This document shows positions 19,326 to 27,764 of a stretch of DNA of 64,000 nt, piece after piece (positions within the stretch are counted from its first letter, which is position 1; every line of letters starts with the position of its first letter). The notes below the pieces were generated by a model, which was given only the letters and a program-made list of their open reading frames with translations, ran no database searches and was not told where the DNA came from. Source of the stretch: Candidatus Latescibacterota bacterium (GTDB taxonomy: Bacteria > Latescibacterota > UBA2968); NCBI GenBank assembly GCA_965205975.1, contig OZ242195.1:2144001-2208000 (forward strand), read 5' to 3'. A program made the translations under genes and the position numbers.

Positions 19326-20189
19326 ATGCCACGTCAATCAATGGTTCTGGCCTGCGCCGATTCTGTCTTTCTATCCGAAATGCGTTCTGAAATAGAGAAA
19401 AATTTTGAAATCGAGATCATCGAAACCATAGACAGCAAGGACAGACTTTGGGGTTGTTTGAAGGAAATGAGGCCCTCGGTCCTCTGCATCTCAACGGATT
19501 TACTCGACAGCATTGGGCAAGTCTCTAAAATCAGGAAGTCGGCGAAGAGATCAAAACTGATTATTTGGGGCGAGGATAATATCGCCCTTGCTGTTGACGC
19601 GATGTATTTGGGGGCTGATTACTATGCCCTGAAAGGAGGGAATCTCGCGTTCTTTTTGGAAAAACTCCAGAAGATCACGGGTTTAAGAAAAAGATCCCAC
19701 TCTGTTTGGGCTTCAAAATTAGATGGTTTTTTGAGAGACCAGTTCAAAAATTCATCCTTAAATTTAAGCGTCTTGTGCGATCATTTCGGGATTTCACCGA
19801 GCTATGCGACGCGGTTGTTCCGCGAACATATCGGGATATCCTTTCACAAGTATTTGTCCTTTTATCGCGTGGAAGAAGCAAAACGCTATCTTGCCGACAC
19901 CAAAGACCTGATTTATGAGATTGCTGACAAATGTGGATTCACAGACAGCAACCACCTGATCAGAGTTTTTTTTAAATTTACAAATATGTCTCCAGACCAA
20001 TATCGAAAGTCTTTACAAGACACTGATTGGTTGGAATACAATTTGTCTGGTCATTCTATGCAGTTAAGCACCTCCCAACACCTGACGCGGCCCAACCAAT
20101 TACAAAAGAGAATATTCCGATACGACAACAGCTCTGTGACCGGTTTTGCAACAAAAGCGGAGTGTTCCAAACTCTGTTCTCGCATATGA
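19326..20189 (+). CDS. AraC-family regulator with a degenerate receiver-like N-domain
   Basis: SPSYATRLFREHIG..RVEEAKRYL..IYEIADKCGFTDSNHLIRVF; REC-like AMYLGADYYALK. Confidence 0.85.
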   Translation: MPRQSMVLACADSVFLSEMRSEIEKNFEIEIIETIDSKDRLWGCLKEMRPSVLCISTDLLDSIGQVSKIRKSAKRSKLIIWGEDNIALAVDAMYLGADYYALKGGNLAFFLEKLQKITGLRKRSHSVWASKLDGFLRDQFKNSSLNLSVLCDHFGISPSYATRLFREHIGISFHKYLSFYRVEEAKRYLADTKDLIYEIADKCGFTDSNHLIRVFFKFTNMSPDQYRKSLQDTDWLEYNLSGHSMQLSTSQHLTRPNQLQKRIFRYDNSSVTGFATKAECSKLCSRI

Positions 20190-20352
20190 GGACGAAGAAG
20201 ACGGCGTAGGCAAAACTACTCTATACGTGCCCTCAGCTTACTGTAACTGGGAAATTGAAGGATGTAGTACTCGTTACAATTATGATGGAGATTGCACTGC
20301 GATAACTTGGACGGGTGATGGTTGGACTATATTCACTTGTTTTGATGGTTAA
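20146..20352 (+). CDS. Putative peptide precursor P1 (4 Cys); start uncertain, possibly 5'-truncated
   Basis: Shares NSVLAY[EQ]DE[ED]D and CT..DG..TC[FY] with 27537..27764. Confidence 0.6.
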   Translation: MQQKRSVPNSVLAYEDEEDGVGKTTLYVPSAYCNWEIEGCSTRYNYDGDCTAITWTGDGWTIFTCFDG

Positions 20353-20403
20353 GTACGGGGTAAGGAATGGATGATCCCTGTAGGATTTGTCTCATATTAG
20401 ATT

Positions 20404-20439
20404 ACAGGACAATGTACTTGCTATAGTATGTTGTCCTGT
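20404..20439 (+). repeat. Island hairpin copy H1
   Basis: ACAGGACAATGTACT-tgctat-AGTATGTTGTCCTGT. Confidence 0.85.
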
Positions 20440-20499
20440 TTCATATTTATTATGAGCGATTTTTCGATTCCGCTGAATTTTGTTCTGAGAGGTAGTGCT

Positions 20500-21684
20500 A
20501 TGAGAAAATCAATCATTCTATTTTGTGCTTCTTGCTTATTTTTTTCCTGCAATCAAAATGCAGAAATATCTCAAGACAAGCCGCCTTTGCAAAATGTAGC
20601 GGCACAGACAGTAGAGAAACAGAAGATACGGATGGAGAAGGTTTCTGAGATCCACCTTCAAGAGAATGAGGAAATTTATATTGGAACAATTCAGAGAATA
20701 AGAGTTGACCAAAACAGAATTTATCTCATGGATAGGAGCCGTAAGCAAGTTCTGATATATTCTATGGAAGGTGAATTTATTCGCGCCTTAGGCAGAAGCG
20801 GCGAAGGTCCTGGAGAGTTTCGCTATTTATATACAATGGATGTCAAAGATCACTTGGTTGCCTGCTTTGACCAAGGAAATATGCGAATGACTTTGTTTGA
20901 TACTTCGGGGGTATTCATCAGGTCTTTTGGAACCCGCTCACAAGACTCTGTTCCTTTGGGCAATTGTGTTGCAATCACACAACATCATACCATTCTACAC
21001 TGCCAGCAATCTACGAAGTTAACAAGAGAGGATGACTTGAAACTCTCCTATCCGTGGTTGATCTGTGAATTTGATACATTGGGTAATGTTCTCTCGCATC
21101 ACGGAAAATTCAACCGCCAGATTGTTGGTGATAAAATTGACAAACCGTTCACTGAATTCAAGTGGTCATTTCCTCGTTTTATCACAAGCAGAGATTCTCA
21201 AATATTTCTTTATTTTTTTAATATCCCTATTGTTGTTAGATATGACGAAAGCCATGCGGTTTCCCAAGTCTTCAACGTTGCAACGTCTATTACGAAACCC
21301 AAGTGGGTTGATAAAAACGCGGAAAAACTTCAGCATTTGAGTCCAGAGGCAAGAGCAAAATTGGCCATTCAACGAATGAAAAATGAGCATTCAATAATAA
21401 CATTTATTTCCGATATTGCTTATGTTGATAAGCATTCACTTCTATTTATTTTGCAAGGAGAGGAAGGACGCCAAGGCATTGATCGGACGCGCTCTTATTA
21501 TCTGAGTGCGTATGATGTGAATACTGGGCATCGTTTAATGACGGATATGCACCTACAATCAGAAAAATCTGTGTACTTCCAGCGCATAGCCGTTGACCAA
21601 AATGGCTTTATTTATAGCATCCATAACCATCAGCCTGACAATTTTGTAATCGCTAAATATGAGATCATCAGAGAGGAAATTTAG
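20500..21684 (+). CDS. 6-bladed beta-propeller lipoprotein, subtype A (A1)
   Basis: Lipobox-like LFFSC, GRSGEGPGEF motif, paralog of 25982..27169. Confidence 0.8.
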   Translation: MRKSIILFCASCLFFSCNQNAEISQDKPPLQNVAAQTVEKQKIRMEKVSEIHLQENEEIYIGTIQRIRVDQNRIYLMDRSRKQVLIYSMEGEFIRALGRSGEGPGEFRYLYTMDVKDHLVACFDQGNMRMTLFDTSGVFIRSFGTRSQDSVPLGNCVAITQHHTILHCQQSTKLTREDDLKLSYPWLICEFDTLGNVLSHHGKFNRQIVGDKIDKPFTEFKWSFPRFITSRDSQIFLYFFNIPIVVRYDESHAVSQVFNVATSITKPKWVDKNAEKLQHLSPEARAKLAIQRMKNEHSIITFISDIAYVDKHSLLFILQGEEGRQGIDRTRSYYLSAYDVNTGHRLMTDMHLQSEKSVYFQRIAVDQNGFIYSIHNHQPDNFVIAKYEIIREEI

Positions 21685-21735
21685 AGATCAAGAACTGGAC
21701 TAAATTCAATTCGAATACCTTTCACTGGAATGAGA

Positions 21736-25981: not shown

Positions 25982-27169
25982 ATGACAAAATCAATCATTC
26001 TGTTTTGTGTTTCCTGCTTCTTTTTTGCATGCAATCAGGATGCAGAAGTATCGCAAGACAAACCGTCTTTGCAAAATTCAGAGGCACAAACAGTAGAGAA
26101 CCATCAAATACGTATGGAGAAGGTTTCTGAGATCCACTTAAAGGAAAATGAAAAAGCGTATATTGGAGAAATAAAAAAAATAAAAATTAATGAAAATCGA
26201 ATCTTTCTTATGGATAAGAGTCTGAAGCAGGTTCTGATATTTTCTATGGAAGGTGAATTTGTTCGTGCCTTAGGCAGGAGCGGTGGAGGGCCTGGCGAAT
26301 TTCGCTTTTTGTATACGATGGATGTCAAAGACAACTTAGTCGCTTGTTTTGACCAGGGAACACGTAGAATGACCTTGTTCGACACTTCGGGTGTGTTCAT
26401 CAGGTCTTTTGGAACCCAGTCGCAAAGGTCAGTTCCTCAGGGCAATTGCGTTGCAATCACACAACATCATACGATTTTACACAGCCAAAACCCTAAGGGA
26501 CTACCCAAAAAGCAGTGGCTATCATACACCTATCCTTATTTGATCTGCGAATTTGATACATTGGGCAACGTCCTATCCCATTATGGAAAATTCAACCAGC
26601 AGATCGTCGGAGACAAACTTGATAAACCATTAACTGAATTTGAGTGGTCATTTCCTCACTTTATCGCAAGTGGAAAGTCTCAAACGTACCTTTGGTTTGC
26701 TAATATTCCTCTTGTTGTCAAGAATGACGAAAGTAATGAGATTTCCAAAGCCTTCAACGTAGCAACGCCGATTACGAAACCGAAGTGGGTTGATAAAGAC
26801 AGAAAGAAAAAGGAAGAAGAAATGCGACATTTGAGTAATAAAGAAAAAATGATGCTGGCCATTCAACTCATGAAAAACGACCATTCGACAACAACACAAA
26901 TGTATGACATTGCTTATGTTGATAAGCATAAAATTTTATTGACTTTACAAACAGAAGAAGTGCGCCGAGGCTTTCCTCACTGGACGCGCACTCGCTATCT
27001 GAGTGCGTATGATGTGCATACTGGGCAACGTTTAATGACGGATATCCCTCTCCAATCGAAATACGAGACTTTGGCCGTTGACCAAGATGGCTTTTTCTAT
27101 TGTATTCAGAGTGATAAACCTGACAATTTTGTAATCGCCAAATATGAGATCATTAGAGAGGAAATTTAG
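25982..27169 (+). CDS. Beta-propeller lipoprotein subtype A (A2)
   Basis: Lipobox-like FFFAC, GRSGGGPGEF, same C-terminus as A1 (PDNFVIAKYEIIREEI). Confidence 0.82.
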   Translation: MTKSIILFCVSCFFFACNQDAEVSQDKPSLQNSEAQTVENHQIRMEKVSEIHLKENEKAYIGEIKKIKINENRIFLMDKSLKQVLIFSMEGEFVRALGRSGGGPGEFRFLYTMDVKDNLVACFDQGTRRMTLFDTSGVFIRSFGTQSQRSVPQGNCVAITQHHTILHSQNPKGLPKKQWLSYTYPYLICEFDTLGNVLSHYGKFNQQIVGDKLDKPLTEFEWSFPHFIASGKSQTYLWFANIPLVVKNDESNEISKAFNVATPITKPKWVDKDRKKKEEEMRHLSNKEKMMLAIQLMKNDHSTTTQMYDIAYVDKHKILLTLQTEEVRRGFPHWTRTRYLSAYDVHTGQRLMTDIPLQSKYETLAVDQDGFFYCIQSDKPDNFVIAKYEIIREEI

Positions 27170-27221
27170 AGGTCAAGAACTGGACTAAATTCAATTCGAA
27201 TACTTTTCACTGGAATAAGAC

Positions 27222-27258
27222 AACAGGACAATGCACTCAAAAAGTGTGTTGTCCTGTT
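27222..27258 (+). repeat. Island hairpin copy H5
   Basis: AACAGGACAATGCACT-caaaa-AGTGTGTTGTCCTGTT then CCTTTTT. Confidence 0.85.
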
Positions 27259-27304
27259 CCTTTTTGCAGAATCGCACGGACACGCATTTGGAAGAACCTG
27301 GATA

Positions 27305-27416
27305 TTTGCTACAAAAGATGTGTTTCAGTGTGCAAAATAGATACGTATGGCAGAAAATGATATTCATAAGGTTTGTCGCATCAATCACAAGGCTATATCT
27401 TTAGATCAAGTTACGA
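27305..27416 (+). promoter_or_regulatory. Duplicated upstream element with CAAAA-N16-CAAAA (copy 1, before P2)
   Basis: Near-identical to 29552-29664; CAAAA at 27312 and 27333. Confidence 0.6.
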
Positions 27417-27536
27417 TGCAGAGTGCATTGAGGTTGTTCACTACAGAGAGCCGCGTGATTGTTTGGTCAAAAGCATTTTGCTGACCTTTATAGCCGCCAT
27501 CCAGCGGATCTCTAAACATAACGAAAGGAGTTTCAA

Positions 27537-27764
27537 ATGAAGCGCGTATTGTCCAAACCTCAGCACGAGGTTGCGAACTCTGTTCTCGCGTATCAGGACG
27601 AGGACGACGAGCAAGATTGTTCTGGTTCGTACTGGTACGCAAACAATCAGTGGTTCGCGCATTGGCCCTGTGATGCCGTCTGTGAAGACCATGATTGCTG
27701 GGAAAGAGAAGGCGCAGGGTCTTGCACATTGGTTTCTGATGGCAGCGAGCAAACATGTTACTGA
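27537..27764 (+). CDS. Putative peptide precursor P2 (75 aa, 6 Cys, 4 Trp, acidic)
   Basis: Strong RBS AAAGGAG 6 nt before ATG; MKRVLSKPQHEVANSVLAY followed by QDEDDEQDC...CTLVSDGSEQTCY. Confidence 0.8.
   Translation: MKRVLSKPQHEVANSVLAYQDEDDEQDCSGSYWYANNQWFAHWPCDAVCEDHDCWEREGAGSCTLVSDGSEQTCY

Follow-up and report, generated by a model that had tools for sequence, protein, structure and literature searches.

Two small genes, P1 and P2, in a 64,000-nt stretch of a Candidatus Latescibacterota genome (contig OZ242195.1, positions 2,144,001 to 2,208,000; hereafter the window) are, judged by sequence comparison, members of a real and apparently undescribed peptide family, belonging to a variant form of a maturation system that is cataloged but as yet unstudied. 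They lie in a cluster at window positions 12690-42056, in which every gene is encoded on the plus strand. The evidence tips modestly toward P2 being a precursor from which an acidic mini-protein, exported and stapled by disulfides, is made, with the propeller lipoproteins of the same cluster serving as its cognate immunity or binding proteins. P1 represents a second allele type that has lost its 5′ end in a deletion and is probably silent.

20146-20352, plus strand: P1 peptide gene, TTG start, four cysteines, 5′-truncated
27537-27764, plus strand: P2 peptide gene, intact precursor with a 19-residue leader and a 56-residue core, six cysteines

An earlier reading of the window made from sequence alone (the sequence-only reading) had singled out both frames as paralogous precursors, and they exist with the coordinates and cysteine counts that it gave. 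The DNA block that it found in both genes is confirmed as 14 nt at positions 20170 and 27576, present nowhere else in the window. BLASTP aligns only 16 residues of P1 and P2 around the proposed motif (E 2e-5), and a genome-wide scan with that motif returns P1, P2 and two other matches, both outside comparable small open reading frames. The claim that neither peptide carries a Sec signal also stands, since a hydrophobic stretch is absent from both (best 11-residue hydropathy of 0.5, versus 2.5-3.1 in lipoproteins and membrane-anchored neighbors). Neither Pfam nor NCBIfam holds a family for P1 or P2. The two genes are true paralogues, but only P2 is intact in this genome, and the truncation of P1 had gone unnoticed.

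The conserved unit proved to be longer than, and offset from, the motif first proposed. NSVLAY[EQ]DE[ED]D occurs exactly in only three of 34 homologues (protein-collection clusters at 90% identity) because its acidic tract falls outside the conserved block. By contrast, a 19-residue leader of the form MKxxLxKPQxxxxNxVLAY, ending [LF]AY, is found in 34/34. In an alignment of 26 sequences, identity averages 0.71 across the leader and 0.29 across the core, falling to 0.23 when the scaffold cysteines are removed. The constancy of the leader was read correctly, but the cores are not freely hypervariable and retain Cys49, Cys54, Gly61, Cys63 and Cys74. A terminal CT..DG..TC[FY] motif seen in P1 and P2 shrinks across the family to G-x-C...C. 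The combination of constant leader and variable core had been taken as the hallmark of ribosomally synthesized peptides that carry post-translational modifications (RiPPs), and homologues, synteny and the peptide-maturation context of the cluster now back this assignment. The general features of RiPPs are present: a precursor made on the ribosome, its leader conserved and its core variable, and a co-encoded S8 peptidase and ATP-binding cassette (ABC) exporter, both of which presumably act on the peptide.

A P2 search of 41 genomes gave, besides the source genome, strong matches in G002, G012 and G015 (E 1e-16 to 5e-5), three of the 20 genomes from the same genus; all other matches had E 0.0136 or worse. 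These three sister genomes carry the same cluster in the same gene order, with five precursors in total, all with different cores. The sequence-only reading had made its case depend on homologous small frames near similar clusters, and such homologues were found, in syntenic positions. A profile search of 168 genomes of the phylum recovered full-length matches in four genomes and leader-only matches in four more, all of one genus. Protein collections yielded 23 matches, 21 of them short precursors; P0002 (1229 residues) and P0023 (repetitive) were excluded as non-precursors, and P0020 was left out of an alignment as broken. The loci with the closest S8 fusion protein (93%) are labeled Candidatus Latescibacterota, and the precursors of loci L024-L026 are identical to those of the three sisters, so they were not counted as additional evidence. 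Related strains are present in a marine metagenome and in a sponge metatranscriptome library. When metagenome contigs were scanned with P2 alone, none of the 293 candidates was a relative. The accessible text of a paper on sponge Latescibacterota (PMC12993501) gives only antiSMASH classes.

The cysteines form the most regular part of the core. In P2 they occupy positions 28, 45, 49, 54, 63 and 74. Among 39 sequences, 30 have the four scaffold cysteines, six have all six, two lack both Cys49 and Cys74, and one is broken. Cys28 and Cys45 are both present in eight of the 39 and never occur singly; the two sequences devoid of Cys49 and Cys74 are kin and represent one event. Because cysteines are gained and lost in pairs, 28-45, 49-74 and 54-63 are the likely partners. 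Full disulfide pairing had been argued from even cysteine counts, which are indeed seen in 31 of 34 cores, but mostly because the scaffold is fixed. The paired gains and losses, and the co-occurring MauE and CxxC proteins of the cluster, back the proposal more strongly than parity alone. Disulfides in the core are therefore highly likely, as far as sequence patterns can indicate. All 26 aligned cores are acidic (net charge -5 to -18, with -13 for P2), and cores are 24% Asp/Glu, with His, Tyr and Trp. AlphaFold2 models residues 31-75 of P2 as a meander of three β-hairpins with predicted local distance difference test (pLDDT) values above 89 (block pLDDT 90-94). A Foldseek search with this model gave no match at E <= 0.001, and the best VIA-align Z score was 3.1.

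P1 and P2 belong to an array of peptide genes, hairpins and propeller genes with the following layout.

19326-20189, plus strand: AraC-family regulator, native stop lost in the deletion, reading into P1 DNA in another frame
20404-20439, plus strand: terminator-like hairpin after P1
20428-21684, plus strand: DUF5128 six-bladed propeller lipoprotein, type A (Pfam E 1.9e-16)
21736-21774, 25873-25907, 27222-27258, 27838-27872 and 29267-29303: hairpin copies of the same type
21823-24311, plus strand: type B DUF5128 propeller, interrupted by an IS3 element (tblastn pieces 8-306 and 307-403)
~22761-24020: IS3-family element cutting the type B propeller gene
24402-24437: related hairpin after the IS-split propeller
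24567-25775, plus strand: DUF5128 propeller lipoprotein, type B
25934-27169, plus strand: DUF5128 propeller lipoprotein, type A
27306-27536, plus strand: conserved upstream element with ribosome-binding site, found before every intact precursor of the four clusters and absent before P1
27995-29206, plus strand: type B DUF5128 propeller lipoprotein with six blades, one face bearing long basic loops

In the three sisters, the precursor begins ~200 nt after the AraC stop, and the stretch between them includes a conserved element and a ribosome-binding site, both also found before P2. The source genome lacks this stretch together with the AraC stop and the start of P1. A deletion of ~245 nt removed the upstream region of P1, its ribosome-binding site and its first nine codons, leaving a junction at 20157/20158. 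P1 retains residues 10-73 of its intact orthologue P0098 (73 residues, 81% identity), and its sole start is a TTG codon within the AraC gene, without a ribosome-binding site. The AraC product is consequently 287 residues long here, compared with 284 in the sisters. An assembly artefact was rejected as the cause, as contigs of runs X1 and X4 cross the junction without differences; both runs come from one study, which is possibly the source of this genome. A low-depth X4 contig carries ~245 extra letters at the junction, and an X5 contig from another study matches 20156-20754 with 15 differences and runs on upstream to a start of the normal kind; the contigs that carry the longer form differ at many other positions too. 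In the RNA run X17, reads cover only part of the AraC gene.

Precursor decay is seen elsewhere as well, in a copy in G012 cut by an insertion sequence and in the broken P0020. In these cases, as at P1, the propeller genes persist. Partial copies related to the IS3 element of the window occur elsewhere in the genome, and it is a similar element that cuts the G012 precursor. A half copy of the P2 upstream element lies at 29553-29664 (82% over 112 nt), before the thioredoxin-like gene and with no peptide gene after it; it may be a promoter that the genes share or mark the site where a precursor was lost.

Both P1 and P2 are followed by a hairpin and then by a propeller gene, as the sequence-only reading had described, but the hairpin is not specific to precursors. 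Six close copies exist genome-wide, all within 20404-29303, after P1, P2 and four propellers. Those behind P1 and P2 have stems of 15-16 bp (z -4.8 to -7.5), and terminator-like scores are listed for five of the six copies. Rfam returned only two chance-level matches for the hairpins, and sigma-70-like sites did not exceed chance (16 vs 19.1). An integron-cassette interpretation was dropped because no integrase was found nearby and the hairpins are terminator-like.

The propellers have lipoprotein-type N-termini, as read from sequence, and a six-bladed fold, and they resemble NHL domains and uncharacterized Bacteroides exported proteins. Their loops on one face are long and more variable. On this face, assigned from secondary structure and not from coordinates, the loops are net positive in 38/38 rows (mean +6.8), while the blades average -3.9. 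Core type agrees with the type of the downstream propeller in six of seven placed pairs, as judged by eye. A complex prediction for the P2 core and its downstream propeller scored 0.02 with the mark at 0.32; it gave no verdict and was used neither for nor against binding.

Flanking the array are the predicted maturation and export genes.

12690-13058, plus strand: acyl carrier protein (ACP), TIGR04069-like (Pfam PP-binding E 3.8e-10), Ser kept in an NSM motif
13082-14218, plus strand: GT28-like glycosyltransferase, accessory, in two of three sister clusters
14215-15207, plus strand: GT2 glycosyltransferase, accessory, in one of three sister clusters
15195-16259, plus strand: BtrH-like protein, no Pfam match, an ESM Atlas lead
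16252-17421, plus strand: GT4 glycosyltransferase, accessory, in none of three sister clusters
17453-19306, plus strand: S8 protease fused to a DUF1611/TIGR04066-like P-loop domain (Pfam S8 E 3.8e-28, DUF1611 E 1.9e-11)
29668-30417, plus strand: membrane-anchored thioredoxin-like protein with CSSC (weak Pfam Thioredoxin_2 match, E 0.013)
30496-31008, plus strand: rhodanese-domain protein with hydrophobic N-terminus
31008-31496, plus strand: MauE with intact CGCFG (Pfam MauE E 5.8e-24), a DsbB-like oxidant
31551-32291, plus strand: possible sulfotransferase-like protein (weak Pfam Sulfotransfer_3 match, E 0.021), in none of three sister clusters
32361-34235, plus strand: ABC exporter without a peptidase domain
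34338-42056, plus strand: membrane fusion protein and two AcrB-type resistance-nodulation-division (RND) permeases

The S8-DUF1611 fusion lacks a signal peptide and is likely, on sequence grounds, to be the cytoplasmic leader peptidase. Its D9/H48/S192 triad and P-loop G-K are kept in at least 95% of 52 rows, with the triad intact in the window copy. It scores 152 bits as QhpE-like and 128 bits against TIGR04066 (cut-off 200), both under the respective cut-off, and matches DgcN at E 0.0016; for the DUF1611-like domain, sequence comparison gave no solved structure. The ACP scores 31.9 bits against TIGR04069, under the cut-off of 70, and its Ser is kept in 47/47 ACP matches spread over 46 of 60 related loci. 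Together with the BtrH-like protein and the glycosyltransferases, DUF1611 and the ACP are candidate core-modifying enzymes. The glycosyltransferases and the sulfotransferase-like gene differ among the sisters and are therefore considered accessory. The BtrH-like assignment comes from ESM Atlas similarities of 0.97-0.98 to clusters with BtrH_N in 17-33% of their members. CxxC is present in all members of four groups of such thioredoxin-like proteins, and the window copy may play a DsbA/MauD-like role. The accessible part of a 2026 preprint describes the CGCFG of MauE as the active site of a DsbB-like catalyst (bioRxiv 10.64898/2026.03.05.709764).

Directly upstream of the cluster, at 9757-11401, lie nitrile hydratase beta, alpha and activator-like genes, as they do in G012. 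A gene for a helix-turn-helix plus pentapeptide-repeat protein (11508-12671, minus strand) is divergent from the cluster.

The S8-DUF1611 fusion marks 72 loci, mostly in Latescibacterota. A scan of these loci, which itself demanded the leader Tyr, gave 55 candidate precursors, of which ten were discarded by eye as ordinary genes and 45, in 38 loci, were kept. Their Lys/Arg-rich leaders end in AY in 41/45 and otherwise in LY, with Val or Ile at -4 in 42/45 and a free residue after the Tyr. Their cores are unrelated, span 35 to 129 residues and in many cases lack cysteine. In the source genome, the four intact matches to leader plus ribosome-binding site all fall within its three S8-DUF1611 clusters.

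Associations were counted in 60 loci (L024-L083); as the loci are kin, the counts are not independent and overstate co-occurrence. Where the core is short and Cys-containing (12 loci), a propeller is present in all 12, a CxxC protein and a rhodanese in 11 each, MauE in four, a radical S-adenosylmethionine (SAM) gene in two and CAAX/Abi in none. In the 23 loci with long or other cores, propeller, CxxC protein, rhodanese and MauE are all absent, with radical SAM in one and CAAX/Abi in 19. The remainder comprises three loci with hydrophobic two-Cys cores and 22 without a candidate. Eight of these 22 have a propeller, and four of the eight gave five more short peptides, with four to five Cys and a variant leader ending VEAQ, directly upstream of the propeller. 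In a quick tree of the S8 domain, the loci with propellers are spread over three or more distinct clades, each well supported, plus one long branch. Because the same type of leader bears unrelated cores and the propeller loci form separate clades, the chassis, as traced through sequence, is constant while a cassette of cargo plus partner is exchanged.

The short hydrophobic cores of L027, L039 and L041, with one Cys at each end and accompanied by Yip1 and a different CxxC protein, are a third cassette type. L022 (G000:C1:3072780-3086445) is a second S8-DUF1611/ACP cluster, with precursors of 69 (five Cys) and 65 residues (two Cys). Both have IYGY at the end of the leader, and behind each come genes for a propeller-like lipoprotein and an ABC permease; a radical SAM gene with a RiPP recognition element (RRE) lies upstream. 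A third cluster, L023 (G000:C1:4635048-4644417), has a 140-residue precursor with a long Gly/Ala-rich core beside CAAX protease-like and GNAT-like proteins and no propeller. The Bacteroidota locus L074 (6366-6779), with both fusion and radical SAM, encodes a 137-residue precursor with ten Cys and an internal repeat. Two further peptide clusters of the genome, at G000:C1:2800080-2811958 and 250433-259494, combine GT28/GT4 glycosyltransferases and a large ABC exporter with two kinds of double-glycine-like precursor each, and one Gly/Ala-rich core ends in CTCSCN. A glycosyltransferase cluster at G000:C1:2488815-2499740 encodes a pair of small, secreted, Cys-rich paralogues (117 and 116 residues) that have a common N-terminus and diverge beyond it.

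The closest known chassis is the CLI_3235/CcpM system of Bacillota (TIGR04065, TIGR04068, TIGR04066, TIGR04069, subtilase and ABC exporter), exemplified by the SacP23 cluster (PMC10731318). Going by the accessible text, the two share an S8 protease, a TIGR04066-like domain, an ACP, an ABC exporter and a Cys-rich precursor whose leader spans ~19 residues. The ESM feature lead from P2 to CLI_3235 clusters, 0.75-0.77, lies under the trust level. Here, in contrast, the protease and the TIGR04066-like domain are fused, the host is diderm, the cluster has no radical SAM gene, and MauE, the CxxC protein, the rhodanese and the propeller lipoprotein array are added. TIGR04065 has no match among 26 candidate precursors, none above cut-off in the genome and none at P1/P2; radical SAM genes occur in three of the 60 loci, and their best models are not CcpM (TIGR04068). 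As the precursor and radical SAM comparisons both fail, the cluster would work like the CLI_3235/CcpM system without being a member of it.

The cassette, in turn, resembles the NVEALA (PF14055) arrays of Bacteroidota, in which a small peptide with a conserved motif and a variable Cys-bearing tail also lies directly upstream of a DUF5128/TolB-like propeller lipoprotein. This comparison draws on one Bacteroidota genome, G198, any match being found in three of 201 genomes. Of its seven NVEALA matches over cut-off, six were placed: five stand directly before a propeller gene and one stands one gene before. NVEALA peptides have a Sec-type hydrophobic N-terminus, whereas P1 and P2 would follow an S8/ABC route behind a leader that is basic and cytoplasmic; PF14055 has no match at either. 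Loci L121-L124 of G198 hold such arrays, in which twin RND permeases and an S26 signal peptidase domain accompany the NVEALA peptides and their six-bladed propeller lipoproteins. No literature on NVEALA peptides or their propeller arrays was found in a search that left most subscription journals outside its reach, so the NVEALA system itself appears uncharacterized. With the same reach, no literature joining DUF1611 to RiPPs was found; a query on BtrH, ACP and RiPPs brought up no relevant title among the matches listed, and darH, as named in PMC3949708, is unrelated. In the MauE/MauD disulfide pathway and in MauE-bearing candidate RiPP clusters from Streptomyces (PMC7794033), a CGCFG MauE likewise stands beside a CxxC protein and a Cys-rich precursor, according to the accessible text. 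They differ in phylum, in precursor and in the S8-DUF1611/ACP chassis and propellers found here.

Together, these features suggest a stepwise pathway. The precursor would be made with its 19-residue basic leader, which conservation delineates. The S8-DUF1611 fusion would recognize this leader and, with good probability, cut after ...V-x-A-Y, i.e. Tyr19; a hydrophobic -4, a small -2 and an aromatic -1 residue suit subtilisins. The core would then leave through the peptidase-less ABC exporter, perhaps followed by the RND system. Outside the cytoplasm, MauE and the CxxC protein may oxidize it to the C28-C45, C49-C74 and C54-C63 pairs predicted from covariation. Finally, the acidic core may bind the basic face of the propeller lipoprotein encoded directly downstream, for which the chances are about even. 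The propellers would act as cognate partners, for immunity or binding, of a polymorphic peptide that neighboring strains use on one another. CAAX/Abi proteins are known as bacteriocin immunity proteins. Antagonism with propeller immunity is favored because the propellers outnumber and outlast the peptides and occupy the CAAX/Abi slot of other loci, and because the nearest studied relative, SacP23, is called antibacterial in the title of its report (PMC10731318).

The DUF1611/ACP/BtrH-like module might also acylate the freed N-terminus, although this is doubtful. The idea comes, by weak analogy, from family names (DgcN acetyltransferase, and a BtrH-related acyltransferase for a sister group) and from general enzymology.

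Several observations weigh against the favored pathway, besides the kinship of the loci and the provisional loop-face assignment noted above. Typical membrane-active bacteriocins are unlike the strongly anionic cores, which counts against the presumed antagonistic activity. One G012 pair disagrees in core and propeller type, and for four of the eight propeller loci initially counted as empty, a second look again gave no precursor. Acylation is weakly supported, as the BtrH-like protein seems to lack the canonical Cys/His and no enzyme that would load the ACP was found in the cluster. The papain-fold residues are apparently absent in a weak profile alignment, with the N-terminal Cys in one of 24 rows, and the hhalign match to a Pfam-confirmed BtrH_N group is weak (E 0.004, prob 3.5%). 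Moreover, the genome has three RRE-bearing radical SAM genes outside this cluster, and these could act in trans.

Another role for the same matured peptide is that of a signal, with the propeller as receptor or presenter in kin recognition or density sensing feeding AraC. The AraC regulator does lie directly upstream in all four clusters, the cores are acidic and stable, several allele types coexist per genome, and no toxic domain is seen. Nevertheless, the cluster encodes no sensor kinase or transmembrane transducer, the lipoprotein propellers have no cytoplasmic part, and the neighboring slot in Cys-poor loci is filled by CAAX/Abi proteins, known as immunity proteins. Signaling is the main competitor of the antagonism reading, but an unlikely one.

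It is less likely still that the peptide is a surface structural or metal-binding module, acidic, possibly acylated and remaining with the propeller to bind cations or host molecules. The composition of the cores, the NHL-like lipoproteins and the ACP are compatible with such a role; the family alignment, however, has no invariant non-Cys ligand residue in the cores, and many allele types and repeated peptide loss better fit conflict or signaling.

Close behind in improbability is a ranthipeptide or sactipeptide with Cys-Asp/Glu thioethers installed by a radical SAM enzyme in trans, as in CcpM or PapB systems. The chassis is akin to the CcpM cluster, and ranthipeptide systems (PapA/PapB, QhpC/QhpD/QhpE) share the Cys/Asp-rich core, the short leader and a QhpE-like protease. 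PapB accepts varied spacing, according to the accessible text of PMC9413430. Modification in trans is conceivable given the three RRE-bearing genes; three PapB/QhpD-like genes are found in the genome, and in G015 one lies 8 kb from the cluster. Unlike in ranthipeptides, no radical SAM gene is present among the window genes, and within 10 kb one is found in only two of the 12 short-Cys loci. CX3D/E follows 20 of 95 Cys (0.21), no excess over a background of 0.19-0.24, and the cysteines are gained and lost in pairs, with a dedicated MauE/CxxC module traveling with the Cys cores. The radical SAM/SPASM genes at G000:C1:3084810-3086445, 2813351-2814956 and 2907883-2909555 are 91% identical to each other, and at least two of the three have directly upstream a short acidic Pro-rich frame without the AY leader.

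Finally, the mau- and qhp-like set of MauE, MauD-like protein, QhpE-like protease, ABC exporter and propellers suggests a quinoprotein-like enzyme, of the type of methylamine or quinohemoprotein amine dehydrogenase, with the peptide as its small and the propeller as its large subunit. This reading is largely refuted, because no Trp or Tyr that could form the cofactor is conserved in the cores of the family alignment. Nor is a MauG or heme subunit nearby, and MauE is reported as a general disulfide catalyst in the accessible part of the preprint (10.64898/2026.03.05.709764).

A gene-level reading can mislead in such arrays, as one of the two apparent precursors is a deletion remnant. A bolder and rather speculative proposal is that the chassis is a radical-SAM-free, cargo-agnostic cut-and-acylate system that lipidates the new N-terminus of whatever sequence follows its leader. 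By taking up an NVEALA-like peptide-plus-propeller cassette, it would have given rise to a new class of N-acylated, disulfide-stapled β-hairpin peptides, each paired with its own propeller in a polymorphic lock-and-key among marine and sponge Latescibacterota. As a TIGR04066/TIGR04069 module without radical SAM, the system would make the action of DUF1611 and the ACP testable alone on a 75-residue substrate. That one leader serves cores of 35 to ~130 residues hints at a tag for export and processing that tolerates varied cargo. With its free loops, the four-Cys scaffold is a natural display scaffold. The DUF5128 propeller lipoproteins, for which no ligand was found in the literature searched, thereby gain a concrete candidate ligand.

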